The position numbers and the translations under genes are program-made. From a virus (taxonomy: Duplodnaviria > Caudoviricetes), in IMG/VR virus record IMGVR_UViG_3300047369_000502, positions 1-56,324 of that record: a stretch of 56,324 nt of DNA; one strand, written 5' to 3'. Shown here in pieces: positions 17,855 to 50,991 of this stretch. The notes below the pieces were generated by a model, which did no database searches, was not told where the DNA came from, and saw only the letters and a program-made list of their open reading frames with translations. How positions within the stretch are numbered: position 1 is the first letter of the stretch; each line of letters opens with the position of its first letter.

Positions 17855-17885
17855 AAGCTCGTTTGGAAACAAACGAGCTTTTTTT
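17855..17885 (+). terminator. Intrinsic terminator overlapping the gp55 promoter
   Basis: AAGCTCGTTTG-GAAA-CAAACGAGCTT followed by a T-tract. Confidence 0.8.
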
Positions 17886-17892
17886 CGTATAA
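17866..17892 (+). promoter_or_regulatory. Middle-type promoter driving the late sigma gene
   Basis: GAAAC 17866-70, TATAA 17888-92. Confidence 0.65.
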
Positions 17893-17914
17893 AAACAAAT
17901 AAAGCAATTTAAAC

Positions 17915-18295
17915 ATGCCTAGAAAGAAGAATTATTTAAACAATAAAGATTTATATAATGCAATTGTAGAATCTAAACAACAAGATAAGTTAACGCCCAC
18001 TGCAGAAAAAATGTTAGTTCTTTTAGCAGAGCGAACAATTAGAAAATTAACTTATGTAAACGAAGACGATAGGCAAGATTGTTTGCAATTTGCTCTATTA
18101 GACCTTTTAAAATATTGGCGTAATTTTAATCCAAAATATACTAACGCATTTGCTTATTTTACAGAAATAGCAAAAAGAGGTTATGCGAAGGGTTGGAATA
18201 AAATTCACCCACAAAAATATAAAAATACAATGTCTATTGATAGAATCACCACAGGAAAAGGTGGAGATGATGGAGGTGGAATGTTCAATATATAA
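17915..18295 (+). CDS. Late-transcription sigma factor (T4 gp55-like)
   Basis: NYLNNKDL...KYWRNFNP...NAFAYFTEIA matches the gp55 YVNNK...NFDP...NPFAYFTQI pattern. Confidence 0.85.
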   Translation: MPRKKNYLNNKDLYNAIVESKQQDKLTPTAEKMLVLLAERTIRKLTYVNEDDRQDCLQFALLDLLKYWRNFNPKYTNAFAYFTEIAKRGYAKGWNKIHPQKYKNTMSIDRITTGKGGDDGGGMFNI

Positions 18296-18768
18296 TGTCT
18301 ATAAAAAACTTAAAACCCACCGGTAATTCGGGTTTTGTACAAGGTTATTTTACACCGACAAATCCAGATAAGTATATTGGGCCAACGCCTATAATATACA
18401 GATCGTCATGGGAACGTAAGTTTTGTATTATGTGTGATACTAAAGAAACGGTAGTTAAGTGGTCCAGTGAGCCTGTAGAGATTAAATATATAAGTACAGC
18501 AGATAAAAGAGAACACAAGTATTATCCTGACTTTTATATGAAAACTAAAACCGATGAAGGTTATGAAGAGTTTTTAGTCGAGATAAAACCTGAAGCTCAA
18601 ATCAAAAAACCAAAACCACCAAAAAAGAAAAGTCAAAAGGCACTTAAATCGTATAAATTTTTAGCGGAGCAATTTATCAAAAATAGAGATAAGTATGCAT
18701 ATGCTAAAGCCTGGGCAGAAAATAGAGGTTGGAGATTTATAGTTTTAACTGAGAAGACACTTAAATAA
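18295..18768 (+). CDS. Head completion nuclease (T4 gp4-like, TnsA-like PD-(D/E)xK)
   Basis: PDKYIG...YRSSWERKF...WSSE...YYPDF...VEIKP...FIVLTE. Confidence 0.9.
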   Translation: MSIKNLKPTGNSGFVQGYFTPTNPDKYIGPTPIIYRSSWERKFCIMCDTKETVVKWSSEPVEIKYISTADKREHKYYPDFYMKTKTDEGYEEFLVEIKPEAQIKKPKPPKKKSQKALKSYKFLAEQFIKNRDKYAYAKAWAENRGWRFIVLTEKTLK

Positions 18769-19373
18769 TGGGTCAAATTAGAAAAGACATAAGAAAATTA
18801 TCAAAAGAGGCTGGTAGTAAAACTAAAGCTAGAAGACAGTCTGAAGATTGGTTTGCAAAATCATCTAAATCTATTAGAGAAAGTGCAGTAAAAAATTATG
18901 CTCGTCCATTTAAAACTGGCATGATTCATGTTTTTAGATATGATAAACCCAAACATATTGAAAGGTTACCGTGGTGGGATTCAAACCCAGTGGTATTGGC
19001 TTTAGACCCAACTGAAGCTGGAAATGATTTAGGTATTAATTTAAATTTATTGCCAGTAAGAGTTAAAGAGGATATGTTAGATATGATATATGATAGGATG
19101 AAAGGAGAGATTAAATCTCAAACATCTGGCGGCCGAAGTAACAATGCATTAAAACAAGGTCAAATTAAATTTACATATGATGGTGCCAAAAAATATTTAG
19201 AGCAATTCGGATTAGATTTTGCTATTAGACAATACATTCCCCAACTTAAATCAAATCAAAAAATAGTGGCCTATGAACATTGGGCTAAAATAGTACTATG
19301 TGATTTTATCGAGTTAAATGGAACTACTATTGGTAAGATAAAATATGCGTTTAGAAACCACCTTAAAAAATAA
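18768..19373 (+). CDS. DNA end protector (T4 gp2-like)
   Basis: GMIHVFRYD.PKH..LPWWD..PVV...GINLNLLP...IRQY. Confidence 0.8.
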   Translation: MGQIRKDIRKLSKEAGSKTKARRQSEDWFAKSSKSIRESAVKNYARPFKTGMIHVFRYDKPKHIERLPWWDSNPVVLALDPTEAGNDLGINLNLLPVRVKEDMLDMIYDRMKGEIKSQTSGGRSNNALKQGQIKFTYDGAKKYLEQFGLDFAIRQYIPQLKSNQKIVAYEHWAKIVLCDFIELNGTTIGKIKYAFRNHLKK

Positions 19374-19381
19374 GATATATA
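19374..19381 (+). promoter_or_regulatory. Late-type promoter GATATATA (portal)
   Basis: Recurrent motif. Confidence 0.65.
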
Positions 19382-19406
19382 AAAAAGAATATAATAATAA
19401 AACAAT

Positions 19407-20999
19407 ATGGCAGGATTTACAGACAGAAATGGACCATTAAGTAATAGTTCAAAACCGTTTAGCCTTTCAAACTCTTTGAAAACGCTATCTAGTTTTGGTA
19501 TGCGTTATGATGATTTGGTTCTAAGACAATCTCAAGCTATTGGTCCGATGGAAGCAGAAATCGGATATGGCCAAATGAATCCTTATGGTGTTGATAGCGA
19601 TGACATCTATGGTGCATTTGCCGCAATGTCCATGACGGACACGAATCTTAAGAAGAACATACCATTTTTCGACCAAGCTTATCCAGCTAAAAGAGACGAA
19701 CTAAGAGCATTTTCATTAAACGATGAAGTAGAAGATATTTTAGATATTCTATGTGATGAAACTATAGTATATGATGATAAAAACTTCTTTTGTCAACCTG
19801 AGATTTTAGGGCTTGATGTATCTAACGATGTAGAAAAGGACTTAAACAAATACTTTAGACAAATCTATCACTATTTTGGTTTTAATTCTGACCAATCTGC
19901 ATGGTATTATTTTAGAAAATTCTTAATTGATGGTTATCTAACATTTGAGATAATTTATTCCCCCGATCAAAAAGAAATTATTGGATTTAAAGAATTAGAC
20001 CCAATCACACTTATTCCAGGTTACAATCACGATGATGGTAAAAAGGTTTGGGTACAATATAAAGACGATCCAGTAAAAGAAAGAAAATTATATGATTCAC
20101 AAATCATTTATCTTTCTTATTCTTCAATTACCACTGCATCTAGAGTTTCATATATTGAGAGATTAACAAGAGCATTTAACTTGTTAAGAATTATGGAACA
20201 CACTAGAGTTATCTGGGCTGTAACTAACGCTTCATTCAGAATGAAGTTTATTATTCCGGTTGGTGGTAAATCTAAAACAAGAGCAAAACAATCACTTGCT
20301 CAATTAATGAATTCATATAAAGAAACGGTTGATTTTGATTGGGAATCAGCAACGTTGGCCACAGACGGTAAACCAATGTTACAATTCTCAAAAGAATATT
20401 GGTTACCTTCTAAAGATGGTGAAACTCCAGAAATTGAAACACTTGGAGGTGAAGGTCCAGACCTATCAGATACAGAAGCACTTAAATACTTCTCTGATAA
20501 ATTAAAGCATGTTTCTAAAATTCCATATTCTAGATTTTTATACGAAGATGGCGGAGGTGACTTTAACCTTGCTGCCGATGGTATGATTAGAGATGAAATC
20601 AAATTTGGTAAATTTATCAAAAGATTAAGATCGGTTTTCCAAGAAATTATGGTGAAACCTCTTTATATTCAAATGTGTCTAAAATATCCTGAGTTTACTA
20701 ATGACCCTCAGTTCAAAACACAAGTTGCACTGAGATTTAATGAAGAAAATGTCTTTGCTGAATTAAAGACAATGGAAATCATGGAACGTAGATTAGAATT
20801 TATCGGCTCTATGAGAGATTCATTAATGACAACTAATCAAGAAACAATGGAAGAAGAATATTACTTCGATCAAGAGTACTTAGTTAAGAAATATCTTAAA
20901 CTAACTGATGATGAGATTAGGGCTAATAATGCTGCTAAATCAAAGCAAGCTAAAGATGACGCTGAAGCGCCAGAGCCAGAAGACCCATTCGCAATGTAA
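19407..20999 (+). CDS. Portal protein (T4 gp20-like)
   Basis: FRKFLIDG, SYIERL.RAFNLLRIME, EYWLP...EIETLGG, IRDEIKFGKFIKRLR. Confidence 0.93.
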   Translation: MAGFTDRNGPLSNSSKPFSLSNSLKTLSSFGMRYDDLVLRQSQAIGPMEAEIGYGQMNPYGVDSDDIYGAFAAMSMTDTNLKKNIPFFDQAYPAKRDELRAFSLNDEVEDILDILCDETIVYDDKNFFCQPEILGLDVSNDVEKDLNKYFRQIYHYFGFNSDQSAWYYFRKFLIDGYLTFEIIYSPDQKEIIGFKELDPITLIPGYNHDDGKKVWVQYKDDPVKERKLYDSQIIYLSYSSITTASRVSYIERLTRAFNLLRIMEHTRVIWAVTNASFRMKFIIPVGGKSKTRAKQSLAQLMNSYKETVDFDWESATLATDGKPMLQFSKEYWLPSKDGETPEIETLGGEGPDLSDTEALKYFSDKLKHVSKIPYSRFLYEDGGGDFNLAADGMIRDEIKFGKFIKRLRSVFQEIMVKPLYIQMCLKYPEFTNDPQFKTQVALRFNEENVFAELKTMEIMERRLEFIGSMRDSLMTTNQETMEEEYYFDQEYLVKKYLKLTDDEIRANNAAKSKQAKDDAEAPEPEDPFAM

Positions 21000-21029
21000 T
21001 ATCTTAAAAAAGGAAAGAATATATAAACT

Positions 21030-21368
21030 ATGAAGATTATACAAACATTTGAAGAATTCATTCAAGAGGACGCTCTTAAAGCAGGCGAAGAATCTAAATT
21101 ATATGTCGATGATGTTAAACTAGATTCAGGTCCTACGATTAAGGCGGCAGAGATTTTGGGTGCTATTACAACAGCTAAAACCGAAGATGAATTTAAAGAC
21201 TATTTTTACGCAGAGTATGGTGAAGCTGCATTTGCAGAAGGAGAAATGGACGTTATAGTTGGGTTCTATTTAGATAAGGCTGCCGAAGACGCAGAGGCCG
21301 AAAAAGAGGCTGAAAAAGAGGAAGAAGGAGCTGAAGGAGGGGACGACGATCCACTGGCAGACATATAA
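21030..21368 (+). CDS. Small acidic prohead core/internal protein
   Basis: Lies between portal and protease; N-terminal IQTFEEFIQE resembles the T4 capsid-targeting sequence. Confidence 0.55.
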   Translation: MKIIQTFEEFIQEDALKAGEESKLYVDDVKLDSGPTIKAAEILGAITTAKTEDEFKDYFYAEYGEAAFAEGEMDVIVGFYLDKAAEDAEAEKEAEKEEEGAEGGDDDPLADI

Positions 21369-21423
21369 TAAGATATTTCAATAATAAAATAGGATATATA
21401 TTAAAAATAGAAAAACTATAAAT

Positions 21424-23706
21424 ATGAAAAATACAAACGATTTATTAATCGTCGAAATGTCGTCTTCAGCACTGAGCTCAGTTCAGAACGAAGAAAAAGC
21501 GTACATTCTCGAAGGTATTTTTGGTCAAATCGATCAGAAAAATAGAAACAACCGTATCTATACGGAGTCTGAATATGTTCCACAGATCGAAGCACTTCAA
21601 GCTAAGATCGACGCTTCTAAACTTTTAGGAGAATTGGACCACCCTACTTCATTTGATACTTCACTTAAAAACGTATCTCACATCATTGAAGAACTTCATT
21701 ATGATAAAGACACAAAGCAAGTAAGAGGTAGAATTAGATTATTAGATACTGATGCTGGTAGACAAGCTAAGGCTTTAGTTGATGCTGGTATTCCTTTACA
21801 AATTTCATCAAGAGCAGCAGGTGCCGTTGAATCTAACGGTAAAGTAAAAATCAAACAATTATTTACTTACGACCTGGTTGCCGATCCTGGTTTTGAAAAT
21901 GCAGAATTAAAGAGAGTTAACGAATCTTATGGATTTGATAATGATTCTGGTTTATGGATTTACGAAATGAACAACGAAGGTAAGGTTGAAAAAGAAAACA
22001 TTGAAACTATAACAACACAAATAAAAGAAAATAAAAACATGGCAGAATTTGTAAAGGCTGAAGACTTCAACAAGTACTCAGAGTATTTAGCGAACGAAAT
22101 CAAGTCGATTAAAGAAGATATCAACGCTAAGCAAGAAGAAGCTGGCGAAGATAAAACAGTTGAGAATTTAACTCATCATAACGATCACATTGTTGAAAGC
22201 GTTAATAAATTATCAGATTACGTTGGTTATCTAGCTGAAAAACTAGATGAATCTATTCAGTATACAGAACATGTTGCTGAAAAAACAGACCAAGGTATTT
22301 CTTATAGTGAATCTATTGCTGAAAAACTAGATAAAGGTATTCAATATTCAGAGCACTTAGCTGAAGCAGTTAGTAAAGTAAAAGACTTTGCTGATTATTT
22401 AGCTGAAGCACACAATGAAGGTGCTGCAACACATGAAACACTTGTTGGTTATGTTGAATATTTAAAAGAAAACTTACAATCAGTTTCAGAATATGCTGAA
22501 TATATCGCTGAATCAATTAATGAAAACTTTGTTACAGAAGAAGACGAAGCTGAAGAGCCAGGTCTAGAAAAAGAAGATGCTGAATCTGCAGAAGAAATCG
22601 TTGATAACGATGGAGAAGGTGACGTTGAAGGCGAAGAAGTAGCAAAAGAAGCTGGTGAAGATAATGAAGATGAATTAGAAGACGTTACGGAAGTTGGACC
22701 AGAAGGTGAAACTGAATCACAAGACGAAGCTGTTGAAGTTGAAGCTGAAGAAGAAGTTGAAGAAGAACTAGAAGGTGAAGTTGAAGCTGAAGAGTCTGAC
22801 GATGATGACGATGATGACGACGATGACGACGATGATGATGACGATGACGATGAAATTGAAGAAGTTGAAGAATCTGATGAAGGCGCAAAAGATGTTGAAG
22901 ATATCGAAGACGAAGAAGTTGAAGCAGGTGATAACTCTGAAGAGGGTGATGTATCTGAAGAAGGTGAAGGTAAATCAGTAGAAGATATCGAAGGCGAAGA
23001 AGTTGAAGCAGGTGATAACTCTGAAGAGGGTGACGTTGAAGGCGAAGACTTCGAAGAAGCTGAAGAATTAGAAGATGAATCAGAAGAATCTGATGCACAA
23101 GTTGAAGATGAATCAGAAGAAGTTGAAGCAGGTGAAGGCGAAGAAGAAGCTGAAGGCGAAGAAGGAGCACACGATCCTTTGGAAGCATATAAAACTGAAA
23201 TCTCTTCTAAACTAGATAAATTAGTTGAAAATGCTCAAGCTAAAGAAAATGAAAATCCTTCATTCTTTAGAGTAGTTTCATCTAAAACAAGAGAAGCATA
23301 TAACACATTAAGTGAAGATGCTAAAACAAACGTTAGACAAAGAGTTGCAAAAAGAGGCTTTATGACAGAAAGAGAAATCTTAGCACACATTAACGAATCA
23401 CAATTAATCGTTGAAAGTGCTGGTCAAGCTCCTTTATATGTTTCAGCAATGCCAACAGAGTATGCTGAAAAATGGGAAAACTTAAGTGAAGCTAAGCAAA
23501 ATCAGATTCACGCTCAGGCAAAGTATCACACTTTAAATACTGAGTATCAAGTTAGCAATTTCTGGCAAACTAGAGATTTAAGAGAAACTCCAGTTAATTT
23601 AGAAAAAGTTGAAATGGTAAAAGAATCTAAGCAAGTAGAAGAAAAGAAGGACTTATATGACACTTCTAAGTACGCTGAAGCTTTCAAGAAAAGATTTAAC
23701 AAATAA
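21424..23706 (+). CDS. Prohead protease (gp21-like) fused to an acidic scaffold/core domain (gp22-like)
   Basis: LEGIF..NRNNRIY, GELDHP, VSHII, ISSRAAG, TYDLVADPGF in the first ~165 aa, then helical repeats and an Asp/Glu-rich tract. Confidence 0.85.
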   Translation: MKNTNDLLIVEMSSSALSSVQNEEKAYILEGIFGQIDQKNRNNRIYTESEYVPQIEALQAKIDASKLLGELDHPTSFDTSLKNVSHIIEELHYDKDTKQVRGRIRLLDTDAGRQAKALVDAGIPLQISSRAAGAVESNGKVKIKQLFTYDLVADPGFENAELKRVNESYGFDNDSGLWIYEMNNEGKVEKENIETITTQIKENKNMAEFVKAEDFNKYSEYLANEIKSIKEDINAKQEEAGEDKTVENLTHHNDHIVESVNKLSDYVGYLAEKLDESIQYTEHVAEKTDQGISYSESIAEKLDKGIQYSEHLAEAVSKVKDFADYLAEAHNEGAATHETLVGYVEYLKENLQSVSEYAEYIAESINENFVTEEDEAEEPGLEKEDAESAEEIVDNDGEGDVEGEEVAKEAGEDNEDELEDVTEVGPEGETESQDEAVEVEAEEEVEEELEGEVEAEESDDDDDDDDDDDDDDDDDDEIEEVEESDEGAKDVEDIEDEEVEAGDNSEEGDVSEEGEGKSVEDIEGEEVEAGDNSEEGDVEGEDFEEAEELEDESEESDAQVEDESEEVEAGEGEEEAEGEEGAHDPLEAYKTEISSKLDKLVENAQAKENENPSFFRVVSSKTREAYNTLSEDAKTNVRQRVAKRGFMTEREILAHINESQLIVESAGQAPLYVSAMPTEYAEKWENLSEAKQNQIHAQAKYHTLNTEYQVSNFWQTRDLRETPVNLEKVEMVKESKQVEEKKDLYDTSKYAEAFKKRFNK
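22798..22851 (+). repeat. GAY trinucleotide run encoding 18 consecutive Asp
   Basis: gac/gat x18. Confidence 0.9.
22897..23033 (+). repeat. Two-copy direct repeat (~53 bp, period 84 nt) encoding EDIExEEVEAGDNSEEGD
   Basis: Copies start at 22897 and 22981. Confidence 0.85.
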
Positions 23707-23708
23707 AA

Positions 23709-23716
23709 GATATATA
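23709..23716 (+). promoter_or_regulatory. Late-type promoter GATATATA (major capsid)
   Basis: Recurrent motif. Confidence 0.7.
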
Positions 23717-23807
23717 ATAATATAATCGACGATAGGGTGACAGAAGCAGAAAACCCAAGTATGTCGAGTTTTTAACTAAACACAAATAAAAAAAACGATC
23801 ATTAAAA

Positions 23808-25217
23808 ATGGCAAATTTATTAAACGAAGCTGAGATCAGAAATACTTGGGCGCCAATCATCGAAGAGGCAACTGGTATTAATGAATCAGAAAAATTAGCG
23901 TGGATGTCGCAATACTGCCACAACCACAAACTGTATGAAGACGCAAACATTATGTCTTTATCAGACAACCCTGGCCCAATGAACCTTTCAGGTATGGGTG
24001 CAGTAACATTCCCAGGTAGCATTTCACAAGGTGCTGCTGACGGTGCTACTGGTTCAGGTGACAAAGCTCCAACTTTACTTCCTTTAGCGATGCAAGTTGC
24101 AGCTCAAACAATTGGTTTAGACTTAGTTCCTGTTGTACCAATGGCAGGTCCTATGGGCTTATTATCTTACCTAGACTTCACTTACCAAGGTGGTAGATTA
24201 GATAACGCTCAAGCTCCAACTTACGTTAAGACTGACGGTACTCCGGCAGACGCAACTAAAGAAGTTGAAGTAGGTACTTCAAGAATCGACGGTTTAAAAA
24301 TCTACTCAGTAGGTTCAGCCTTAAGCGCTGGTCAAACTATTGCTGACTTATTCACTGGTGAAACTACTATTGAATTAGTTGCTGCATTAGAAGACCACGT
24401 TCCTGGATTCTCAGGTGGTACTGACGTCTTAGACGCAAACGATGAAGTTCTTTACAGAAAGCCTTTCAATAGAGATGCTGGTGAAAAGACTGCTGACAAA
24501 GTAATGGGTCTTTCATTATTCAGTAAATCAGTTGCTGCGGAAACTTTCCAAGTAGCTGCTGCTGTAACTAGAGAGCAAATCCAAGACTTAAAACAATTCG
24601 GTGTTGACGCTGTAGCTCAAGTTGAGTCAGTATTAACTAACGAATTAACTCAGTCAATCAACCAACACATCTTAGGTAAAATGAGAGAAATCGCTAAATC
24701 TGATTTATTAAGCGGTGTAGCTCTTGATTTAACTTTAGACGGTGGAGAAACTAGAGGTGATGCTCATAGAAGAATCTTAACAAACATTTTAGCTGCTGCT
24801 AACTTAATTGCTATCAGAGGTAGAAGAGGTGCTGGTAACTTCGCTGTCGTAGGTGGTAAAGTTGCATCTGCATTACAAGGTGTTGCAGGATTCGTACCAA
24901 ACCCAATGGCTAACACTTTCAACCAAGTTGCAGGTGCTATCTTCCCAGTAGGTTCGGTTGCAGGTATCAACGTATACACTGACCCTAACTTAGGCTTTGG
25001 TGAAGCTGAAATCTTAGTTGGTAGAAAAGGTGACGGAAACGGTCCTGGTCTAGTATTCATGCCTTACTTAATGGCTGAATCAGTACAAGCGATCGCTGAA
25101 GGTACAATGGCTCCAAAAGTAGCTGTGAAATCAAGATACGCTTTAGTTGAAGCTGGTTTCCACACTGCTGAGCAGTACCAGAAGTTCTCTTTAGACGCTT
25201 CTAAATTCTCACTATAA
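23808..25217 (+). CDS. Major capsid protein (T4 gp23-like)
   Basis: WAPIIE, DLVPVVPMAGPMG, EQIQDLK..GVDA, ELTQSINQHI, RRGAGNF, FMPY, KSRYAL. Confidence 0.92.
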   Translation: MANLLNEAEIRNTWAPIIEEATGINESEKLAWMSQYCHNHKLYEDANIMSLSDNPGPMNLSGMGAVTFPGSISQGAADGATGSGDKAPTLLPLAMQVAAQTIGLDLVPVVPMAGPMGLLSYLDFTYQGGRLDNAQAPTYVKTDGTPADATKEVEVGTSRIDGLKIYSVGSALSAGQTIADLFTGETTIELVAALEDHVPGFSGGTDVLDANDEVLYRKPFNRDAGEKTADKVMGLSLFSKSVAAETFQVAAAVTREQIQDLKQFGVDAVAQVESVLTNELTQSINQHILGKMREIAKSDLLSGVALDLTLDGGETRGDAHRRILTNILAAANLIAIRGRRGAGNFAVVGGKVASALQGVAGFVPNPMANTFNQVAGAIFPVGSVAGINVYTDPNLGFGEAEILVGRKGDGNGPGLVFMPYLMAESVQAIAEGTMAPKVAVKSRYALVEAGFHTAEQYQKFSLDASKFSL

Positions 25218-25240
25218 TCTAGATTAGAGATTTTAATATT

Positions 25241-25270
25241 AAAGGCCCTCGAAATGAGGGCCTTTTTTTT
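25241..25270 (+). terminator. Intrinsic terminator after major capsid gene
   Basis: AAAGGCCCTC-GAAAT-GAGGGCCTTT followed by a T-tract. Confidence 0.85.
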
Positions 25271-25342
25271 GTTTGGAAATTAAGCAAATTAGAACAGATA
25301 TATAAAGTATAATCTAATATTAAGTTTAAAAAAAATATAACA

Positions 25343-27058
25343 ATGATGAAATTAACTAAAAAGATAATGTTATTTGAAGACTTCTCAGCAAGTGCATCAG
25401 ATAAACAAAATGCACAAGCAAGTGCACCTACTACAGCTAATTCTGTTGCAGTTGATGCAACTGCTCAAGATGCTGCTGGAGAAACTTTAAGAACTGAAAT
25501 CGTAAAAGATGTTGATTCTATTTTAACAAGACTTTCTGAGTTATCAGACAATATTAAAGAGGGTTTAAATATTCACGAAGCTTTTAACGAATATGAAATT
25601 TTATTAGAAGAACTAATAGAAGAAGATGAAGAGTTAAATGAAAAAATCATTGATATTATTAAAAGCCCTATAAAATACACTAAGATTAAAAACAATCTTA
25701 AAAAGTATCAAAAAGCTTTAGTGCAAATATCTATCAATGATGTAGATTTTGCAAAGAAAATGCAAGCATCTGATGCAGATTCAGGTAAAGGTACCGAAAG
25801 AAGAGCTACATTAGACGCTGCAAATACTGCAAAGAACAAGGCACTAAAAGACCAAGCTGATGCTATTTCAGCTAGAATGGATGAATTAGCAATATCACAA
25901 GGATTAAAACTTATTGTTACGTCGGGTAAAAATAAAGCTAAACTACAAGCAGCTAAAATTGTAATGAAAGCAACTTCAGGTGAAGAAGCAAAGCAGTTAA
26001 AATTAAAGATAGAAACTTTAGAGGACAGAATTGCTAATGATGGTAAATCACTAAAAGATTACGCTAAAGAAAATCCAGCTGAAGGAGCTCCAAAAACCGA
26101 TGATGGTAATTCTTCTAAAACTGCTCAAGATGCAATGGATGCAAATGCTAAAAAATCTAAAGAAGACGCCAAGAAAGAAGACGGTGGCAAAAAAGACGGT
26201 GGCAAGAAAGAAGACGGTGGTAAAAAAGAAGACGGTGGTAAAAAAGAAGAAGATGGCAAGAAAGAAGAGGAGGTTGAAAAGATTAAACAAGCTTCTCAAA
26301 AAGTTAAAACTGAAATCGACGATTTACCAAAAGGACCAAATGGTCAACCTACAAGTGGGCCAAAGAAAGCTGAAGTTGAGCTAAAAAAATTAGAATTAGA
26401 CCTTAAAGCTGCTGAAAAAGAAGGTGACCAAGAAAAGGTAAAAGAATTAAAAGATAAAATAGCAGCCGCTAAAACAACAGCTAGCTTAAAACCAAGTGGA
26501 GTTTCAGGTAAGAAAGAAGACGGTGGTAATGAAGAGACTCCTGAAGTAAAAAAGCATAAAGCTAAAATCAAAGAGTATGAAGATGCTATTGAAGCTTTAA
26601 AAGATAAGAAAGACAAAAGCTCTAAAGATAAATTAGGGATTATTCAGTCAGCTTTAAAATCCGAAAAAGATAAATTAGCAAAAGCTAAAGGAACCGGAGT
26701 AACTGAAGAAAGTTTAGAAATCATAGAAGAAGCTACATTGCCTGAATTAATGGCATATGACGCTGATGAAGATAACTACGCATATTTAAAATCTAAAGCT
26801 AAAGAATTCGGTGTAAAAGTAGCAGTTGCTACGGGCGATGATTCTTTATATTGGGATATGGGATATGATACACTAACATATACTGGTAAAAAGGATGCTA
26901 TCTTAAAATTAGCTGCAATTTCAGGTCACGATCAAGATATTTGTTCAGAACCAGATTGTGGCGGATATGAATTAACTGAAAACGTTATTGAATTACCTAA
27001 AACAGTTAAGTTGACTGAAGGTATGTCAATTGCTCAGAAATTTAAAGCATTAATGTAA
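25343..27058 (+). CDS. Lys/Glu-rich low-complexity late protein, probable internal head protein
   Basis: Late motif at 25297; N-terminal IMLFEDF; KKEDGG repeats; several L/I/V-x-E sites. Confidence 0.6.
   Translation: MMKLTKKIMLFEDFSASASDKQNAQASAPTTANSVAVDATAQDAAGETLRTEIVKDVDSILTRLSELSDNIKEGLNIHEAFNEYEILLEELIEEDEELNEKIIDIIKSPIKYTKIKNNLKKYQKALVQISINDVDFAKKMQASDADSGKGTERRATLDAANTAKNKALKDQADAISARMDELAISQGLKLIVTSGKNKAKLQAAKIVMKATSGEEAKQLKLKIETLEDRIANDGKSLKDYAKENPAEGAPKTDDGNSSKTAQDAMDANAKKSKEDAKKEDGGKKDGGKKEDGGKKEDGGKKEEDGKKEEEVEKIKQASQKVKTEIDDLPKGPNGQPTSGPKKAEVELKKLELDLKAAEKEGDQEKVKELKDKIAAAKTTASLKPSGVSGKKEDGGNEETPEVKKHKAKIKEYEDAIEALKDKKDKSSKDKLGIIQSALKSEKDKLAKAKGTGVTEESLEIIEEATLPELMAYDADEDNYAYLKSKAKEFGVKVAVATGDDSLYWDMGYDTLTYTGKKDAILKLAAISGHDQDICSEPDCGGYELTENVIELPKTVKLTEGMSIAQKFKALM
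26171..26269 (+). repeat. Tandem 15-21-bp repeats encoding KK(E)DGG
   Basis: aagaaagaagacggtggc and variants, about 5 copies. Confidence 0.85.
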
Positions 27059-27060
27059 TA

Positions 27061-27570
27061 TTAAAGCGAGCGTTTAGCTCCTTTTTTAACAAGTTTAAGA
27101 AACTCTTCTCGTTCTTCGAGCAAGAGTTTTTTACATTTCTTGCGAAACTCAATTGAAGATTTTAAAATACGACTGTCTACCATTGGAGCTTTTAAAATAT
27201 CTCTATATTCTGGATGAACAAAATTTTCTAAATCAAAGTTCATAAATTTAGCCTTAATATGCTTTAAACTTATTGCACATTGCCAATCTATTTGATTGTA
27301 ATTATTTTCTAATGTTTTAAAATTTACTAAGGTTTCTGACTGAGCATCCCAAAATCCTCTAACTTGATTTTGATTTTGTTTTACGGGTCTTTGCGTTTTA
27401 AGAATGCACTCTATGACCCGATCGTCATCTGCCCATCTCCTAACGTGTCTATTCTCCACCAAGAATTTACGATAAAACTTTTGCAAAGGTGCAAGTATAA
27501 TACCATATCGATTACGAGGATTTGGACCATTGGTCCTATTAAGGATAATATGTAGATATGATTTAGCCAT
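27061..27570 (-). CDS. Hypothetical basic protein; the only convincing minus-strand gene
   Basis: 169-aa ORF exactly fills the gap between two + strand genes; minus-strand AGATAAATA late motif upstream. Confidence 0.75.
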   Translation of the reverse strand: MAKSYLHIILNRTNGPNPRNRYGIILAPLQKFYRKFLVENRHVRRWADDDRVIECILKTQRPVKQNQNQVRGFWDAQSETLVNFKTLENNYNQIDWQCAISLKHIKAKFMNFDLENFVHPEYRDILKAPMVDSRILKSSIEFRKKCKKLLLEEREEFLKLVKKGAKRSL

Positions 27571-27587
27571 ATATTATATTTATCTCT

Positions 27588-27615
27588 GAAACAAATCTAA
27601 GCCTTGAGAGTATAA
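27588..27615 (+). promoter_or_regulatory. Middle-type promoter (GAAAC-N18-TATAA) for the clamp loader
   Basis: GAAAC 27588-92, TATAA 27611-15. Confidence 0.6.
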
Positions 27616-27635
27616 CCAGTAAACAAAATAAATAT

Positions 27636-28592
27636 ATGCAATCAGTAAATCAACTTTTTACAGAGAAGTACAGACCTAAGAATTTAGAAGAGCTAATTCT
27701 ACCAGATAGAGTAATGTCTAAATTTAAAGATGGTTTAGTTCAAAATATGTTATTTGCAGGTTCACCGGGAACAGGTAAAACTTCAACAGCAAAGGCACTT
27801 GTTAATCAATTTGAATTACCGTATCTTTATATTAATGCTTCTACAGATACATCGGTTGATGTAATTAGAACTAGAATTACAGATTTTTGTTCTACTGTTT
27901 CTATTATGGATAAACCAGGTATGTTTAAAGTAGTAATTTTAGATGAGGTCGATGGAGTATCTGACCAATTCTTTAAAGCACTTCGTGCAACTATGGAAAC
28001 TTTTGCCAGTAATTCTAGATTTATTGCAACATGTAATTATATTAATAAATTACCCGATCCAATTCTTTCAAGATTTGAAGTTATTGATTTTGATTTTGAC
28101 AAAGAAGAAGAAACAGAATTAACTAAAAAGTATATTCGTAGAGTTTACGATATTTGTAACGGTGAAGATATGTCTATTGAAAAACCAGCTTTGGTTGAAT
28201 TTGTTAGACGTAATTTCCCAGATCTGAGATCGACTTTAAATAAATTACAAGGCTATAAAACACAAGGTACTTCTAATATCACAATAGAAGATGTTAAGAA
28301 ATTTAATTCAGTTTACAAAGACGTATTTGAATTAGTTTTTAATGAAACTGACCCTGCTAAAAATTACCAACTTTTAGTTAGTAATTACTCTAATAGAGTT
28401 GATGATGTTTTACAATCTTTAGGTGAAGAGTTTGTAGAATATATACAACAAGAACAATTGCAAAGTGTTAAAGACATTCCACAGATTATTATTTCTGTTG
28501 CTAAACACCAAGCTCAAAGAGTTCATGTTATAGACCCAGTAATTACAATGTTGAGTTGTGTTTATGAATTACAAAGTATTGTTAAAGGTTAA
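27636..28592 (+). CDS. Clamp loader AAA+ ATPase (T4 gp44/RFC small subunit-like)
   Basis: EKYRP, GSPGTGKT, INAS, ILDEVD, TCNY, SRF, PDLR. Confidence 0.93.
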   Translation: MQSVNQLFTEKYRPKNLEELILPDRVMSKFKDGLVQNMLFAGSPGTGKTSTAKALVNQFELPYLYINASTDTSVDVIRTRITDFCSTVSIMDKPGMFKVVILDEVDGVSDQFFKALRATMETFASNSRFIATCNYINKLPDPILSRFEVIDFDFDKEEETELTKKYIRRVYDICNGEDMSIEKPALVEFVRRNFPDLRSTLNKLQGYKTQGTSNITIEDVKKFNSVYKDVFELVFNETDPAKNYQLLVSNYSNRVDDVLQSLGEEFVEYIQQEQLQSVKDIPQIIISVAKHQAQRVHVIDPVITMLSCVYELQSIVKG

Positions 28593-28614
28593 AATAAACA
28601 GCAAATAATTTTAC

Positions 28615-28640
28615 CATGTCAATTATTTTTAGTATATTGG
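28615..28640 (+). promoter_or_regulatory. Early-type promoter ATGTCA-N10-GTATATTNG
   Basis: CATGTCA 28615-21, GTATATTGG 28632-40. Confidence 0.55.
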
Positions 28641-28663
28641 CTAAGTAATAAGAATCATAAGAT

Positions 28664-29923
28664 ATGAAAGTGGGAAAACATACACTACTAATAGACGGAA
28701 ACTACTTTGTATTTAGTAGATTATTCGTCTTACCTAAGCCAAAAAATGGCCAAAAATTGTTAGGTGACGACAAACAAAAGTCACAATTTATGCGTAAGTT
28801 ATCTATTGACTTTGCTTCAGAAATGCGCAAGCTTAAAATGTTTGTAGATGATGTTGTATTGACAGTAGATTCTAAATCATGGAGAAAAGACCTATATCCA
28901 GAAGCGGAATATAAAGGTACAAGAAAACAAAGCTCTAACGTAGATTGGACTGCAGTCTATGGTGTATATGAAGAATTTCAAAAAATTCTAGCATCACATG
29001 GTGTTACAGTACATCAAATCCAAGGTGCAGAAGCAGATGATGTTATCTTTGGTTGGTCTACTGCTCTTAATAATAGAGGTAAATCATGTATTGTTTGGTC
29101 AGGAGATAGAGACCTTATTCAATTAGTTAATTATTCTAATACAAATGACGCACACACTATTTGGTATTACAATACTAGAAAGTCATTGTATGGATATCAA
29201 GGTTTTGAACAAGACATGATTACTTCAGCTGCATCTGAAATGACTAATGAAGATATGTTATTTAACATGGGTGGCGAACACATGTCTAGAGACCAATATC
29301 AAAATAATATTTTAGGTTGGGTTCAAGCAAATAAAATTGGCATTACTGAAATAGACTGTGATGAGTTTATCTTTAAGAAAATTCTAGTCGGTGATAAATC
29401 AGATAATATCCCATCTGTTGTTACTTGGCAAAAAGAAATGAAAAGTGGTAAACTAAGAACATATTCAATTACTGATAAAATGGCTGATACCATTTACACA
29501 CAGTTTATTAAAGAGTTTGATAACTTTACTATTGATTATCTATTTAATAGTGAATATAAAGATAAATTAGCAGATGTTGTTTATAGAGTTGTTGGTCATA
29601 GTAATATTGGCCTAATTAAGATTGCTATTCAGAATAATATTTCATTAATGTTATTGCACGTTAAAACAATTCCAGACCCGATTCAAAAGGCTATTTATGA
29701 GTCTATAGAAAGAGATTGGGAAGGTGCATTAGATAATATAGATAATGTAATGGATATGGAGAAAATCCTAAAGGGCACAGCCTGGTTAAACAAGGAAGCT
29801 TCGTTCGGACCAGATGCATTTGCAGGTATGGATATTCCATCTGAAGAAAATAAATCACCTATTAAATTAGTTGGTAAAAAAACAAAAACGGAAGAAAAAC
29901 CAAAATCTAAGAAGTTATTCTAA
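28664..29923 (+). CDS. rnh: 5'-3' exonuclease/RNase H (T4 Rnh, FEN-like)
   Basis: LLIDGN, SWRK..YP.YKGTRK, EADDVI, SGDRDLIQL, GDKSDNIP. Confidence 0.9.
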   Translation: MKVGKHTLLIDGNYFVFSRLFVLPKPKNGQKLLGDDKQKSQFMRKLSIDFASEMRKLKMFVDDVVLTVDSKSWRKDLYPEAEYKGTRKQSSNVDWTAVYGVYEEFQKILASHGVTVHQIQGAEADDVIFGWSTALNNRGKSCIVWSGDRDLIQLVNYSNTNDAHTIWYYNTRKSLYGYQGFEQDMITSAASEMTNEDMLFNMGGEHMSRDQYQNNILGWVQANKIGITEIDCDEFIFKKILVGDKSDNIPSVVTWQKEMKSGKLRTYSITDKMADTIYTQFIKEFDNFTIDYLFNSEYKDKLADVVYRVVGHSNIGLIKIAIQNNISLMLLHVKTIPDPIQKAIYESIERDWEGALDNIDNVMDMEKILKGTAWLNKEASFGPDAFAGMDIPSEENKSPIKLVGKKTKTEEKPKSKKLF

Positions 29924-30093
29924 TGAGTATACCAGAATTAAGTATAGAAAAACAAATAGAAGAAATTATTGAAGAGGCCAAAGCACATGGCCTACATTTA
30001 GAGGTAATAGATGCTGCTAGAAAAAGTATCGACCAAGGTGACGTAGATATTTTACAAGCATATGTCGCAGCCTTTGACGAATGGATTAAGTAA
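29923..30093 (+). CDS. Hypothetical protein (56 aa, not in ORF track)
   Basis: TAATG coupling to rnh; MSIPELSIEKQIEEIIEEAKAHGL...FDEWIK. Confidence 0.7.
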   Translation: MSIPELSIEKQIEEIIEEAKAHGLHLEVIDAARKSIDQGDVDILQAYVAAFDEWIK

Positions 30094-44462: not shown

Positions 44463-44509
44463 TTGAAACTTTAAGATAAGACATAATATAACAATTAAAT
44501 AAGTTATTT

Positions 44510-44913: not shown

Positions 44914-44998
44914 GGAGAGGTGGCAGAGTGGTCGAATGCACTGGTCTTGAAAACCAGCGTACTGCAAGGTACCGGGGGTTCGAATCCCTCCCTCTCCG
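44914..44998 (+). tRNA. tRNA-Ser(TGA)
   Basis: GGAGAGG/CCTCTCC acceptor, CTGGT-CT-TGA-AA-ACCAG, long variable arm, TTCGAAT. Confidence 0.95.
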
Positions 44999-45052
44999 CA
45001 AATATTTTGAAACAATAAAATATTTACATATATAAATTACAAATAATTAAAT

Positions 45053-46123: not shown

Positions 46124-46154
46124 TTGTTCGTAAGTTTTTTCTTTTAAATTTTTT

Positions 46155-46180
46155 TATGTCAATAGAATTTTGTATATTAG
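46155..46180 (+). promoter_or_regulatory. Early-type promoter
   Basis: TATGTCA-N10-GTATATTAG, with upstream AATTGTTCGTAA shared with the 49751 copy. Confidence 0.65.
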
Positions 46181-46198
46181 TAATATAAAATTAAAACT

Positions 46199-47648: not shown

Positions 47649-47887
47649 GTTTAGGTTTTTTTATAGTAGGTGGTGTAATCTTCGCAGTTTACATGTACCT
47701 CACTATTTGGAATATATTTTATAGTTCTAAAAAACAAAGAGAAGAAAATTATCCAAATATAAGTAATGTAGATGACATTATGGATTATGATGGTATGGGT
47801 AATTATGGAAGATTTCCAAAAGAATTACAACCAAGAACTAGAGTAAGCAAAAAGATTTCTAAATCTAAAATGAAAGAAAAGGTATGA
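47645..47887 (+). CDS. Small membrane protein
   Basis: N-terminal TM helix; DYDGMGNYGRFP. Confidence 0.65.
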   Translation: MSLGFFIVGGVIFAVYMYLTIWNIFYSSKKQREENYPNISNVDDIMDYDGMGNYGRFPKELQPRTRVSKKISKSKMKEKV

Positions 47888-48129
47888 TGAAAAGATTATT
47901 TATGAAAATAAGGTCTTTCTTTGTAAACGACCCAGTTGAACCATATACTTGGACAGTTGAAGACTTTGAAGCTGCTAAAAAATGGGCTAAATCCCAACCA
48001 GACCCAGAAAATAAAAACCAATCTATTTGGGATAAAGCATATCAATCTGGATGGAACGAATCTGCATATATTTTAGCAGAAATTAATAAACACCTCAAAA
48101 ATAAAACAAATTCCAATATAACTATATAA
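47884..48129 (+). CDS. Hypothetical protein
   Basis: 81-aa ORF, ATGA coupling. Confidence 0.6.
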   Translation: MMKRLFMKIRSFFVNDPVEPYTWTVEDFEAAKKWAKSQPDPENKNQSIWDKAYQSGWNESAYILAEINKHLKNKTNSNITI

Positions 48130-48134
48130 GATAC

Positions 48135-48608
48135 ATGAAATTAATACTCGTAGGTAAAGCAGCCGCAGGCAAAGATTTTTTAAAGAATAGATTATCAAAT
48201 AAAGGATTTATTAGTGGCGTTAGTCATACAACTAGACCTCCAAGAGAAAATGAAGTTAATCATGTAGATTATCATTTTGTCGATAAGCAAGAATTTGAAG
48301 ATATGATTTCTTGTGGAGATTTTGTCGAGTATATGGAATTTAATGGATGGTATTATGGTCAAACCAAAAAGGATTTCGATCTTGCAGATGTAATGATTAT
48401 GAGTAAAGATGGTTTAGATATGTTACCAAAAGAATATAGAGACCAGTGTCTGGTAATTTGGTTAGACCCACCTAGAATTGCTAGAGTCGAAAGATTAGAA
48501 CATAGAAATGATAAAAACGATTCTATAGTTAGAAGAATGAACACTGATGATGAACAATTTAAAGGGTTTAAAGATTATGACCTACGTATAAAAAACGAAG
48601 ACTTTTAA
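48135..48608 (+). CDS. gmk: Guanylate kinase-like protein
   Basis: GKAAAGKD P-loop, SHTTRPPRENE..VDYHF, NGWYYG. Confidence 0.88.
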   Translation: MKLILVGKAAAGKDFLKNRLSNKGFISGVSHTTRPPRENEVNHVDYHFVDKQEFEDMISCGDFVEYMEFNGWYYGQTKKDFDLADVMIMSKDGLDMLPKEYRDQCLVIWLDPPRIARVERLEHRNDKNDSIVRRMNTDDEQFKGFKDYDLRIKNEDF

Positions 48609-48638
48609 AACAGAGATAGATAAATTAAATTAATAAAC

Positions 48639-49145
48639 ATGACAAATCTAGAACAAAAAAGAAAAGAGATTGTTGAGAATCTCGATCAATTGCAAGTTGA
48701 ATCTTCAGAAAAAAGATTTAACATCAATTTTGATGACATTAAGATGATTAAGACTTTGATGGAGCATCTTAATAAAGGTTATACTTGGAAAACAGCGAAC
48801 GCTGCAGTACTAGTTACACTATATGACCAATTAAAATCTCAACACAAAGAGTTAGTTAATGCTGAAGAAACTCCAGAAGTTTATTCTATTGCACTAAGAG
48901 GACATGAGTTGAATGCTCTTTATCAAGCACTTTTAAATGTGGAAGGAGTTGGTATCGCAAGTGCACGTAGATTTATTACAATGTTGACTCAAGTCGGTCA
49001 AACTGTAGGTGAAGCTATGGAAGAATTAGCAGCTAATAACACTGAAATCAACGCATTACATACACAACTTTCTGAAATAGAAGCTGAAATTAAAGCTGAA
49101 AACGCAGAAGAAGTTGAGCCTGAACTTGAAGCTTCAAGTAAGTAA
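48639..49145 (+). CDS. Hypothetical helical protein
   Basis: 168-aa ORF. Confidence 0.7.
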   Translation: MTNLEQKRKEIVENLDQLQVESSEKRFNINFDDIKMIKTLMEHLNKGYTWKTANAAVLVTLYDQLKSQHKELVNAEETPEVYSIALRGHELNALYQALLNVEGVGIASARRFITMLTQVGQTVGEAMEELAANNTEINALHTQLSEIEAEIKAENAEEVEPELEASSK

Positions 49146-49173
49146 TCATTTTAAGTAACAAATTAGATTAATT

Positions 49174-49203
49174 TCCGAAGGTGTTTATACGCCTTCGGAT
49201 TTT
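49174..49203 (+). terminator. Intrinsic terminator
   Basis: TCCGAAGGTGT-TTAT-ACGCCTTCGGA followed by TTTT. Confidence 0.75.
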
Positions 49204-49232
49204 AACGTTAAAATAAAAGTGGTATATACCAT

Positions 49233-49751
49233 ATGAAATACTTTGTAACATCTAACTTACAGCTTGGTAGACCAGGCGCAATTAAATTGTATAAAAGACC
49301 ATATTCTTCTGTTGAAGAAATGAATAAAGATTTAATTTCTAAATGGAACGAATTAGTCGAACCAAATGACACCGTTTATCATTTAGGTAATTTTGCGTGG
49401 GACCCTAAAACTGCACAAGATGCAATTACAAACTTAAATGGTAAAATATTTTTTATTTTAGGAGAATCAGACCAAGCTTTATTGACACTGAATGAAAAGA
49501 AAATGTTACCTAGTAAATGTCAAATTTTAAGGGACATTACTCGATCAGAACATCCAGATTGTCAATGTGTATTTTCATATTGGCCACTTGCATCTTGGGA
49601 AAAAGCAACTAAAAACTGGTCAGTTATTGGTTATCCTAAAAAATCATTTAAGTCCGATCCTAAGAAAAGGATTATTAATGCTTCCACAGATCTGTGGGGC
49701 AACAAACCTCAAGATTTAGAAAAACTCGTAGGTATTTTTCAAGACTTTTAA
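49233..49751 (+). CDS. Calcineurin-like metallophosphoesterase homologue with substituted metal ligands
   Basis: TSNLQLG, RPY.SVEEMN..LI.KWN..V...DTVYHLGNF, ILGESD, SYWPL. Confidence 0.75.
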   Translation: MKYFVTSNLQLGRPGAIKLYKRPYSSVEEMNKDLISKWNELVEPNDTVYHLGNFAWDPKTAQDAITNLNGKIFFILGESDQALLTLNEKKMLPSKCQILRDITRSEHPDCQCVFSYWPLASWEKATKNWSVIGYPKKSFKSDPKKRIINASTDLWGNKPQDLEKLVGIFQDF

Positions 49752-49783
49752 ATTGTTCGTAACTTTTTAAGCCCAGATTTTTT

Positions 49784-49809
49784 TATGTCAAAAATTTGTG
49801 GTATATTAG
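49784..49809 (+). promoter_or_regulatory. Early-type promoter
   Basis: TATGTCA-N10-GTATATTAG. Confidence 0.65.
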
Positions 49810-49835
49810 TACTGTATTTAAAAGCTGATAATAAT

Positions 49836-50060
49836 ATGATTAGAGAAAAACAACCAAAATCCGAAATTGTAATCGACCTGACAGGTCCAGATGGAAATGC
49901 ATTTGCCCTTATGGGTTATGCTAAAAGTTTTGGTAAGCAAGTTGGTATGAGTGAGTCTTATATCAAGGATATGTTAGACAGAATGATGAGTTCAGATTAT
50001 GAAAACTTAATTAAGGTTTTTGATGATGAATTTGGTTCTGTTGTAATTTTAGAAAGATAA
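49836..50060 (+). CDS. Conserved phage hypothetical protein
   Basis: IDLTGPDGNAFALMG...MMSSDYENLI; ATG at 49836 lies downstream of the promoter. Confidence 0.7.
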   Translation: MIREKQPKSEIVIDLTGPDGNAFALMGYAKSFGKQVGMSESYIKDMLDRMMSSDYENLIKVFDDEFGSVVILER

Positions 50061-50108
50061 TTTTAACTTTTATGTAAATTTTCCATAAAGTATGTAATTA
50101 TACTATAT

Positions 50109-50309
50109 ATGGAAAACAAAATTAAAACACCAATAACACAACTTATTGAGCAATTTGAGTCAGAGTTGCATTATGATACAACAAGACAAGGATTAAAGTA
50201 TGCTATTGAAATTGCAAAGAGAATGCTAAAAAAAGAACAGAAAATGATGTGCTGGTTTGCTCAAGAGTGGCACGAAGTAAAAACTAAAAATAAATTTGAA
50301 AAAAATTAA
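50109..50309 (+). CDS. Hypothetical protein
   Basis: 66-aa ORF. Confidence 0.6.
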   Translation: MENKIKTPITQLIEQFESELHYDTTRQGLKYAIEIAKRMLKKEQKMMCWFAQEWHEVKTKNKFEKN

Positions 50310-50322
50310 CCCAGAATTTTTT

Positions 50323-50348
50323 TATGTCATGGGAATTTTGTATATTTA
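50323..50348 (+). promoter_or_regulatory. Early-type promoter driving the ECF sigma gene
   Basis: TATGTCA-N10-GTATATTTA. Confidence 0.6.
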
Positions 50349-50379
50349 CTACTTATTAATAACTTAAAAACATATATTT

Positions 50380-50991
50380 ATGCCTAAACAAAAACAACTC
50401 ACGTACCGCGAACTATCTGAAAACTTTATTAAATCAAAATCTGAAAAAGATTACCTTGCGCTTTACAATCGTGTAAAACCAGGTCTTAGGAATTACATTA
50501 AGAATGTAGTTAAAGACATTGACGTCGCAGAAGATATTACCACAAATACTCTTACCAAAATGTGGACAAAAATCGATCAATACGATCCAAAATATCAAAT
50601 CACTACATGGCTCTATAGAATCGCGTTTAATGAATGTTTAGGTTGGATTCGTCAACGTAATAGCAAATATAGTTTAGATGCTATGAAAGAATATGGTATC
50701 GAAGTTTCTGAACATTACGCACATACAAGTGCCCATGACCTTTTGATAGAAACAGAAATGAAATCAGAACAAGATTGGTATGATGAAGATGCAGCTCTTA
50801 TGACTAGATATGAATTAGCTTTGACTAATATCAATAATCTTAAACCAATGTACAAGGGTATTATTGAAGATAGACTCATTAATAATATGAAATATGAAGA
50901 CATTGCAGCAAAACATAAGTTGCCACTTCAAACTATCAAAAATAGAATCCGTAGAGGTAAGGCAATTATTGCAGAAAAAATGGATTATTAA
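50380..50991 (+). CDS. ECF (group 4) sigma-70 factor
   Basis: Region 2 AEDI...TKMW..IDQYDP...TTWLYRIAFNECL; region 4 MKYEDIA....PLQTIKNRIRRGK. Confidence 0.9.
   Translation: MPKQKQLTYRELSENFIKSKSEKDYLALYNRVKPGLRNYIKNVVKDIDVAEDITTNTLTKMWTKIDQYDPKYQITTWLYRIAFNECLGWIRQRNSKYSLDAMKEYGIEVSEHYAHTSAHDLLIETEMKSEQDWYDEDAALMTRYELALTNINNLKPMYKGIIEDRLINNMKYEDIAAKHKLPLQTIKNRIRRGKAIIAEKMDY

Follow-up and report, generated by a model that had tools for sequence, protein, structure and literature searches.

The linear IMG/VR record IMGVR_UViG_3300047369_000502, analysed here over its entire 56,324 bases (the window), derives from a marine, uncultured jumbo phage of the Caudoviricetes that is related to T4, and carries three classes of promoter motif. 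An early class precedes the gene for a 203-aa sigma factor of the extracytoplasmic function (ECF) type, a middle class precedes replication genes and the gene for a gp55-like late sigma factor, and a late class precedes virion genes. The initial annotation had drawn this wiring from the window, and it is kept in relatives. On balance, we regard it as probable that the three classes serve a three-step cascade that passes from a host sigma factor to the phage ECF-type sigma and from there to the gp55-like protein. The motifs, their strand bias, their gene partners and conservation, and the domain make-up of both sigma factors are direct observations.

The record is rated about 20% complete, and gene absences were therefore judged from five large relatives. 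These include G002, a genome of 256,444 bp with terminal repeats that is rated 100% complete. Conservation was followed in 53 loci around sigma homologues (57-81% identity; 852 kb) and in 80 loci around gp55 homologues (82-97% identity; 1.03 Mb); near-duplicates are frequent among these loci, and the counts therefore overstate independence.

The middle class has the form TGAAAC-N17-TATAA and stands before DNA polymerase, UvsX and clamp-loader genes and before gp55. GAAAC-N17-TATAA occurs nine times in the window, always on the plus strand, against 0.38 matches expected, and none of 100 shuffles reached nine. The copy reported for gp55 was recovered at 17866-17892, 22 nt upstream of the gp55-like start at 17915. 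A leave-one-out count over 161 distinct sites showed the three A positions of the -35 word kept in 151-161 of 163-171 sites and the C in 161 of 182, whereas the two leading T's are kept only in 84/161 and 108/161 (52-67%). Since the A's and the C are conserved and the leading T's only weakly so, the -35 word is AAC-centred, which is the ECF pattern, and not TTG-centred as for a primary sigma factor. A purine lies directly upstream of TATAA in 165/177 sites, an A follows six nucleotides downstream of it in 148/177, and several sites read TGAAAC(A/C)TTTT. A generic sigma-70 promoter scan of positions 17000-19500 was uninformative (11 hits versus 11.9 expected).

The early class has the architecture T6-TATGTCA-N11-TATATT, upstream of the ECF-type sigma gene. 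The motif first described there, TATGTCA-N10-GTATATTTA, is present at 50323-50348, 33 nt upstream of the sigma start at 50380, within a plus-strand site that spans 50317-50348 (T-run, TATGTCA, N11, TATATT(TA)). As first written, and with up to three mismatches, the pattern has five matches versus 2.17 expected, and 7 of 100 shuffles reached five, which is weak alone; the refined core TATGTCA-N11-TATATT has three matches in the window, all on the plus strand, versus 0.00 expected. Among 50 distinct sites from the window, G002 and the sigma loci, the spacer is 11 nt long in 49. The T-run lies at about -33, the position of the Bacteroidota -33 box, and the downstream box TATATT(A/T)(G/A) agrees at five of six specified positions with the Bacteroidota/flavobacterial -7 consensus, TAnnTTTG. 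Early sites precede small open reading frames (ORFs) of unknown function, an exonuclease gene and the sigma gene.

The late class is a single-box word, GATATATA, which was correctly placed before virion genes by the initial annotation. Its 13 copies in the window, all on the plus strand and all intergenic, compare with 4.13 expected, and 0/100 shuffles reached that number. Late sites precede the genes for portal (19374), prohead protease (21393), major head protein (23709), a 223-aa ORF followed by the large terminase TerL (33225), tail sheath (35773) and tail tube (38650).

The same arrangement recurs in the relatives. Sigma loci hold the middle motif 133 times in the forward and 0 times in the reverse orientation (control 3/0) and the strict early motif 59/0 times (control 0/0); gp55 loci hold the middle motif 112/0 times (control 13/0), the early motif 0/0 times and strict GATATATA 395/0 times (control 49/10). 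The exact middle motif lies upstream of gp55 in 79 of the 80 loci, the single miss being cut off by a contig end. The sigma gene lies downstream of TATATT(A/T) in 53/53 loci and of the strict early motif in 15/53, and the middle motif precedes it in 0/53. By motifs only, this is the wiring of Bacillus phage SPO1, with the sigma gene behind the early class and gp55 behind the middle class. The three motifs could also be real promoters that set the level of expression and not its timing, for example if the sigma factor is packaged or made throughout infection; some sites join middle and late words, and one late word stands before a ribonucleotide reductase gene. Such an arrangement without a temporal cascade seems unlikely to us, given that the wiring runs one way, that the genes sort by function as they do in T4, and that the early class is confined to the neighborhood of the sigma gene.

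The assignment of the 203-aa protein (50380-50991, plus strand) to the ECF-type sigmas is supported by profile and structure comparisons. For Sigma70_r2 (PF04542) it scores 41.8 bits (cut-off 24), and it clears the ECF superfamily model TIGR02937 (55.3 bits versus a cut-off of 42.9); its score for Sigma70_r4_2 (PF08281), 24.5 bits, falls just under the cut-off of 25.7, and the G002 homologue reaches 39.3 bits. No subfamily or equivalog model is passed, the best being the Bacteroides expansion family (TIGR02985, 74.3 versus 126.4 bits) and SigW (70.1 versus 209 bits), and the best solved structure by sequence is also SigW (5wuq). The AF2 model (mean pLDDT 81.5) consists of two helical bundles, with residues 111-122 below a pLDDT of 50. 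It superposes on sigma-E region 4 bound to -35 DNA (2h27_D; TM 0.80, rmsd 1.0) and on sigma-E region 2 bound to -10 DNA (4lup_A; TM 0.85, rmsd 2.0), and among the Foldseek matches listed, ranks 1-24 (22 rows) are all ECF sigmas. The protein thus has the ECF make-up of two domains and a short linker, without region 1.1 or region 3, and its region 2 and region 4 helix are invariant in 14 homologues that are 60-82% identical. The autoregulation that is typical, though not universal, of ECF sigmas is not seen here, the sigma gene never lying behind the middle motif. No anti-sigma gene was identified beside it, and no search aimed at anti-sigmas was made; the neighbors are a 66-aa ORF without a PHROG hit and the GMP reductase gene.

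The second sigma gene, at 17915-18295 on the plus strand, encodes 126 aa with a region-2-like part only. The protein matches phrog_234, 'late sigma transcription factor' (E 5.3e-12), and its top solved-structure hit is T4 gp55 (7d7c_F), at only E 0.12 and with an N-terminal KKNYLNNK block aligned. It has no Pfam hit, no sigma-4 domain and a weak region-2 match to TIGR02937. A region-2-like only protein together with a single-box word before virion genes is the pattern of the gp55 family, and the single-box late class fits a gp55-type factor.

Which protein would read which class, and in what order, we infer from sequence as follows. The beta-type RNA polymerase profile PF00562 matched none of the five large relatives, G002 included, so the host core enzyme must be used; the single-subunit profile PF00940 matched nothing anywhere, controls included, and shows nothing. 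With no phage RNA polymerase, the host core enzyme would be reprogrammed in three steps. In the early step, the host holoenzyme would read the T-run, TATGTCA and TATATT(A/T)(G/A), the last resembling the Bacteroidota -7 box, and would thereby transcribe the phage ECF-type sigma gene along with small genes whose function is unknown. In the middle step, the ECF-type sigma would sit on the host core, with its sigma-4 domain reading (T)TGAAAC and its sigma-2 domain reading R-TATAA 17 nt downstream. This step would switch on genes for replication, recombination and nucleotide metabolism, tRNAs and the gp55-like gene. In the late step, the gp55-like protein would read the single box (G/A)ATATATA(A/T) before virion genes.

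The central assignment, that the ECF-type sigma reads the middle promoters, draws on the gene content of G002. A bipartite promoter needs a sigma-4 domain, the domain that reads the -35 word, and the ECF-type sigma is the sole protein with such a domain found in this complete genome, which makes it the candidate reader. G002 has only two sigma-type genes, the ECF-type homologue and gp55; no third was found with PF04542, PF08281, TIGR02937 or phmmer --max searches with gp1 of Sphingomonas phage PAU and CBB_513 of Pectobacterium phage CBB. Several sigmas are encoded in the phage record LR756500.

The initial annotation had also proposed that an ECF sigma stands in for MotA and AsiA. The absence of the two T4 proteins was borne out, in that AsiA (PF09010) and MotA_activ (PF09114) matched 0/5 large relatives, including complete G002, in a search that had no positive control and did not cover MotCF (PF09158). 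The AAAC-centred -35 word and the ECF type of the sigma also agree with the proposal, while the reading of GAAAC by that sigma remains a prediction. Middle promoters of T4 pair an upstream box with a sigma-70 -10 box. By analogy, an activator not recognised here might bind GAAAC while the host sigma or gp55 reads TATAA, which overlaps the late core ATATATAA; some sites carry both words. We find such T4-like sigma appropriation quite unlikely. Besides the missing AsiA and MotA_activ matches in the five relatives, gp55 cannot start its own synthesis from a gp55-dependent promoter, a terminator stands directly upstream of its gene, and the unvarying spacing of 17 nt and the AAC-centred word suit a sigma-4 domain that reads them directly.

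That terminator, which the initial annotation had overlooked, places the gp55 promoter in an unusual context. A terminator-like hairpin of 13 pairs with a GAAA loop and a T-run ends the upstream late gene (17853-17882, plus strand), and the GAAAC of the gp55 promoter forms its 4-nt loop plus closing base. In 30 distinct relatives, 97% of cells are paired, 7 of 10 pairs are changed on both sides, and 0/500 shuffles matched this; the stem covaries while GAAAC is unchanged (G17-A22 of the alignment invariant). Because GAAAC is exactly the loop and closing base of a covarying hairpin, the word before gp55 might be kept only as a GNRA-type terminator tetraloop and have no promoter role. We consider this highly improbable. 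The T-run varies from 6 to 8 nt among relatives while the spacer to TATAA stays constant at 17, which argues for a constraint of promoter geometry and not of the tetraloop only. Moreover, 8 of 9 other window sites checked have no hairpin around the word, and the gp55 site of G002, TAAAC-N17-TATAAT, lies outside any hairpin loop. With its -35 word in the terminator loop of the preceding late gene, gp55 would be insulated from read-through and would need its own middle promoter.

A comparison of 11 whole or large records extended the motif beyond this clade. TGAAAC-N17-TATAA is enriched in CBB (29 forward/1 reverse versus 1/1 in the control), in PAU (23/0 versus 0/0) and in LR756500 (6/17 versus 1/2), and is not enriched in Tenacibaculum phages pT24 and PTm1, Chryseobacterium phage MA9V-1 or Lak-C1. 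The sigmas of the first two are of another type: PAU gp1 has 362 aa and CBB_513 has 330 aa with regions 2, 3 and 4, and their mutual likeness is weak (E 4e-5). The 203-aa sigma has no significant similarity to either (hhalign probability for CBB_513, 0.5%), and phmmer --max searches with both revealed a gene of that kind neither in G002 nor in the window. In pT24, neither sigma Pfam model finds a match. In PAU, most of the spacer is conserved across the 23 sites besides both boxes (GAAACTTTCGAGGGTTTCGTAGTATAA recurs nearly unchanged), unlike in the clade of the window.

Several of these observations weigh against the cascade, or against the ECF-type sigma as its middle reader. CBB and PAU share the motif but have non-ECF sigmas, so the link between motif and sigma is not one-to-one. 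The phages without the motif are imperfect negative controls, as PTm1 has a weak look-alike of PAU gp1 (E 4e-5) and Lak-C1 encodes a homologue of the 203-aa sigma (25% identity). The gp55 genes of PAU and LR756500 are not directly preceded by a middle motif. The middle -10 box is TATAA and not the usual CGT-type box of ECF sigmas. The conserved TATGTCA block of the early class has no counterpart in the Bacteroidota consensus. The late word at 3479-3487 on the plus strand, a perfect GATATATAA, lies 119 nt before the small-subunit gene of ribonucleotide reductase, a non-virion gene that is a misfit to its class. The limits of the AsiA/MotA search count on the same side.

The co-occurrence of ECF sigma and motif that the initial annotation had suggested as a check is therefore only a suggestive pattern, and the motif also occurs independently of this lineage of ECF sigmas. 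A shared motif with differing sigmas may reflect replacement of the sigma with its specificity kept, extreme divergence, or another shared reader. The middle promoters might alternatively be served by a host sigma, either a Bacteroidota ECF sigma or the primary one, with the phage sigma acting elsewhere, for instance on the early class or at a few sites. Cellular ECF sigmas commonly read AAC-type -35 words, TTGAAA-N18-TATAAT is similar to the sigma-70 consensus of proteobacteria, and the motif occurs in PAU and CBB without this type of sigma; in the part of their paper available to us, Buttimer et al. (PMC5259590) term the CBB version 'divergent RpoD-like'. We nevertheless consider a host reader rather unlikely. 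The conserved core is AAAC, not TTG, and every compared genome with the motif encodes its own sigma with regions 2 and 4; a host reader would also leave a strictly conserved phage sigma without a promoter class. The phages that carry the motif infect Gammaproteobacteria (CBB), Alphaproteobacteria (PAU) and probably Bacteroidota (LR756500 and the clade of the window), whose primary sigmas differ, as the flavobacterial -7 box illustrates, and enrichment across three host phyla favours a reader that the phages themselves encode. Tentatively, TGAAAC-N17-(R)TATAA may be an old, host-independent code of a large T4-related branch of jumbo phages, in which the code has been kept and the reader exchanged, with a sigma of regions 2, 3 and 4 in CBB and PAU and one of ECF type in the clade of the window. 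In the clade of the window, where the -35 word also lies in a terminator loop, the same tentative reading would turn that loop into part of a compact switch ahead of gp55, of the kind 'stop, then restart under new control'.

The proposed cascade has parallels in two classical systems. The T4 programme uses sigma-70 for early genes, AsiA and MotA for middle genes, and gp55, gp33 and gp45 acting on TATAAATA for late genes. Like T4, the phage described here has the virion and replication gene set, a gp55-like factor, a single-box late promoter, and replication genes together with gene 55 in the middle class. Unlike T4, the five large relatives have no AsiA or MotA_activ match, its middle class has a true -35/-10 structure, and it encodes its own sigma with a sigma-4 domain. 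In SPO1, host sigma-A is followed by gp28 and then by gp33/gp34. Successive phage sigmas, each behind a promoter of the previous class, are common to SPO1 and, as judged by motifs, to the window; SPO1 belongs to an unrelated lineage, and in the window an ECF-type sigma makes up the middle tier and a minimal gp55-type factor the last.

A nearly identical in silico scheme has been in print since 2017 for the Rak2-like jumbo phages vB_PcaM_CBB and GAP32. In the portions of the paper accessible to us, Buttimer et al. 2017 (PMC5259590) describe three promoter classes: host-type promoters around a phage sigma gene in the early region of CBB, a second class with TGAAACG as -35 and TATA as -10 before DNA-synthesis genes and a gp55-like gene, and a T4-late-like word before structural genes. 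In those portions, the phage sigma is not named as the reader of the second class. The TGAAAC-type -35 and TATA -10 before DNA-synthesis genes and gp55 are shared with the window. The window differs from CBB, a phage of a gammaproteobacterium, in its sigma, which is ECF-type and has no significant similarity to CBB_513, and in its late word, GATATATA instead of ATAAATA; a -35 word in a terminator loop is likewise not among the features described there for CBB or GAP32. To that scheme, the present analysis adds the ECF-type sigma, the -35 word in the terminator loop and the spread of the motif over host phyla. According to the part of Iyer et al. (2021) that we could consult, jumbo phages of the T4 type have two sigmas, one minimal and one fuller. 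The excerpted account of SigW of Bacillus subtilis gives its promoters as tGAAACnTTTt / CGTA (PMC5758882). SigW shares with the phage sigma the two-domain fold and with the middle class the -35 word tGAAAC(nTTTt); the middle class differs in having R-TATAA in place of CGTA, and, unlike SigW, the phage sigma does not lie behind its own presumed promoter type (0/53). Literature searches found no promoter-level account for Bacteroidota phages.

The remaining sites of the three classes in the window are all on the plus strand. Middle-class sites lie at 6550-6576 (before a 134-aa ORF of unknown function), 7067-7093 (before a 247-aa ORF and the C-terminal part of DNA polymerase), 9477-9503 (before UvsX, a DnaB-like helicase, SbcD and SbcC), 44465-44491 (before a 98-aa ORF), 45009-45035 (after tRNA-Ser and before a 72-aa ORF), 50994-51020 (directly downstream of the sigma stop codon and before the GMP reductase/IMPDH-family gene), 54273-54299 (within a tRNA cluster, before tRNA-Glu and tRNA-Gln) and 54531-54557 (before a 138-aa ORF). 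Another, at 27588-27615 upstream of the clamp-loader gene, has a spacer of 18 nt and had escaped the initial annotation. At four places in G002 (reverse-complement 14671, 46208, 162068 and 220354), a complete late word, GATATATAA, ends in the TATAA of the middle motif, and these combined sites may be dual middle/late promoters.

Further late words are found before a gp15-like gene (15512), before ORFs of 394 aa (16601), 571 aa (25297), 656 aa (31177) and 1196 aa (40798, to 40805), and between tRNA-His and a 240-aa ORF (53431-53438). Early-class sites lie at 46155-46178, before ORFs of 74 and 274 aa, and at 49784-49807, where the site overlaps the listed start of ORF 49785-50060, so the true start of that ORF must be further downstream. 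A relaxed form, CATGTCA-N11-TATATT, precedes the exonuclease gene (28615-28638). Several early promoters also have a conserved word, TTGTTCGTAAC (TGTTAATAAC in remoter relatives), about 20-30 nt upstream of the T-run. It occurs at 46124-46141 and 49752-49768, and in sigma loci L009-L020 about 90 nt upstream of the gene, and may serve as an operator or as an UP-like element. Many early sites have a third conserved block, (T/G)(A/G)TAATT, about 6 nt downstream of TATATT, near the expected transcript start (46179-46190 and 49808-49820 in the window).

The window has a G+C content of 33%, and its plus strand holds almost all genes. The T4-like virion genes are those for portal gp20, gp4-type head completion, gp2-type end protector, prohead protease, major head protein, large terminase, tail sheath and tail tube. 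Replication is represented by family-B DNA polymerase (in two pieces), UvsX, a DnaB-like helicase, SbcCD and a clamp loader, and nucleotide metabolism by ribonucleotide reductase, guanylate kinase and the GMP reductase/IMPDH-family gene. The polymerase is split into genes at 2049-3452 and 7873-9081, which cover PHROG positions 95-495 and 495-841, respectively, with two ribonucleotide reductase genes and two ORFs of unknown function between them. Short 'DNA polymerase' genes adjoining the gp55 region are annotated in PAU and PTm1 too. The ten tRNA genes, at 44914-44999 and 52554-54477, include two tRNA-Leu(taa) and one tRNA-Ile(tat), with middle- and late-class words between them.

A DNA-level search of phage records turned up nothing beyond short stretches, 66-71% identical, in huge uncultured phages, and hence a close relative in culture is not known. 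The deposited records that come nearest belong to huge uncultured phages, Lak phages of Prevotella, Tenacibaculum phages and PAU. A Shine-Dalgarno-like 4-mer occurs at -20 to -4 in just 3 of 58 genes, and leaders are A-rich, as is described for Bacteroidota in the excerpt available of PMC6847099. Scarce Shine-Dalgarno words, the hosts of relatives and the best sigma model point to a host among the Bacteroidota in general; the Flavobacterium host named by the initial annotation was a guess. An aquatic lineage linked to Bacteroidota, the 'moraphages' (PMC12619734), has a sigma factor among its core genes, and the section of that paper available holds no promoter analysis. RNA libraries (23 runs, all in the form of assembled contigs) were also available, and four were compared with positions 15000-30000 of the window. 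Contigs identical to the window were present in one oligo-dT marine RNA library and those of an approximately 90%-alike relative in two others; assembled contigs cannot reveal transcript starts, ends or levels, and promoter use is not inferable from them. An acidic stretch at 22500-23050, inside the prohead protease-fusion gene (21424-23706), partly matches very many marine RNA contigs with numerous joints and loose ends, which probably stem from unrelated low-complexity sequence.

If these predictions hold, the phage sigma and its defined promoter would provide a compact orthogonal expression pair for Bacteroidota, in which standard promoters fail. T4-related phages without MotA and AsiA would run their middle phase with a small ECF-type sigma, and a widespread group of uncultured marine phages would have a complete regulatory circuit that can be read from sequence. 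The presence of one promoter code in phages of three host phyla, with sigmas of differing types, bears on how such a code may survive the replacement of the gene that reads it.

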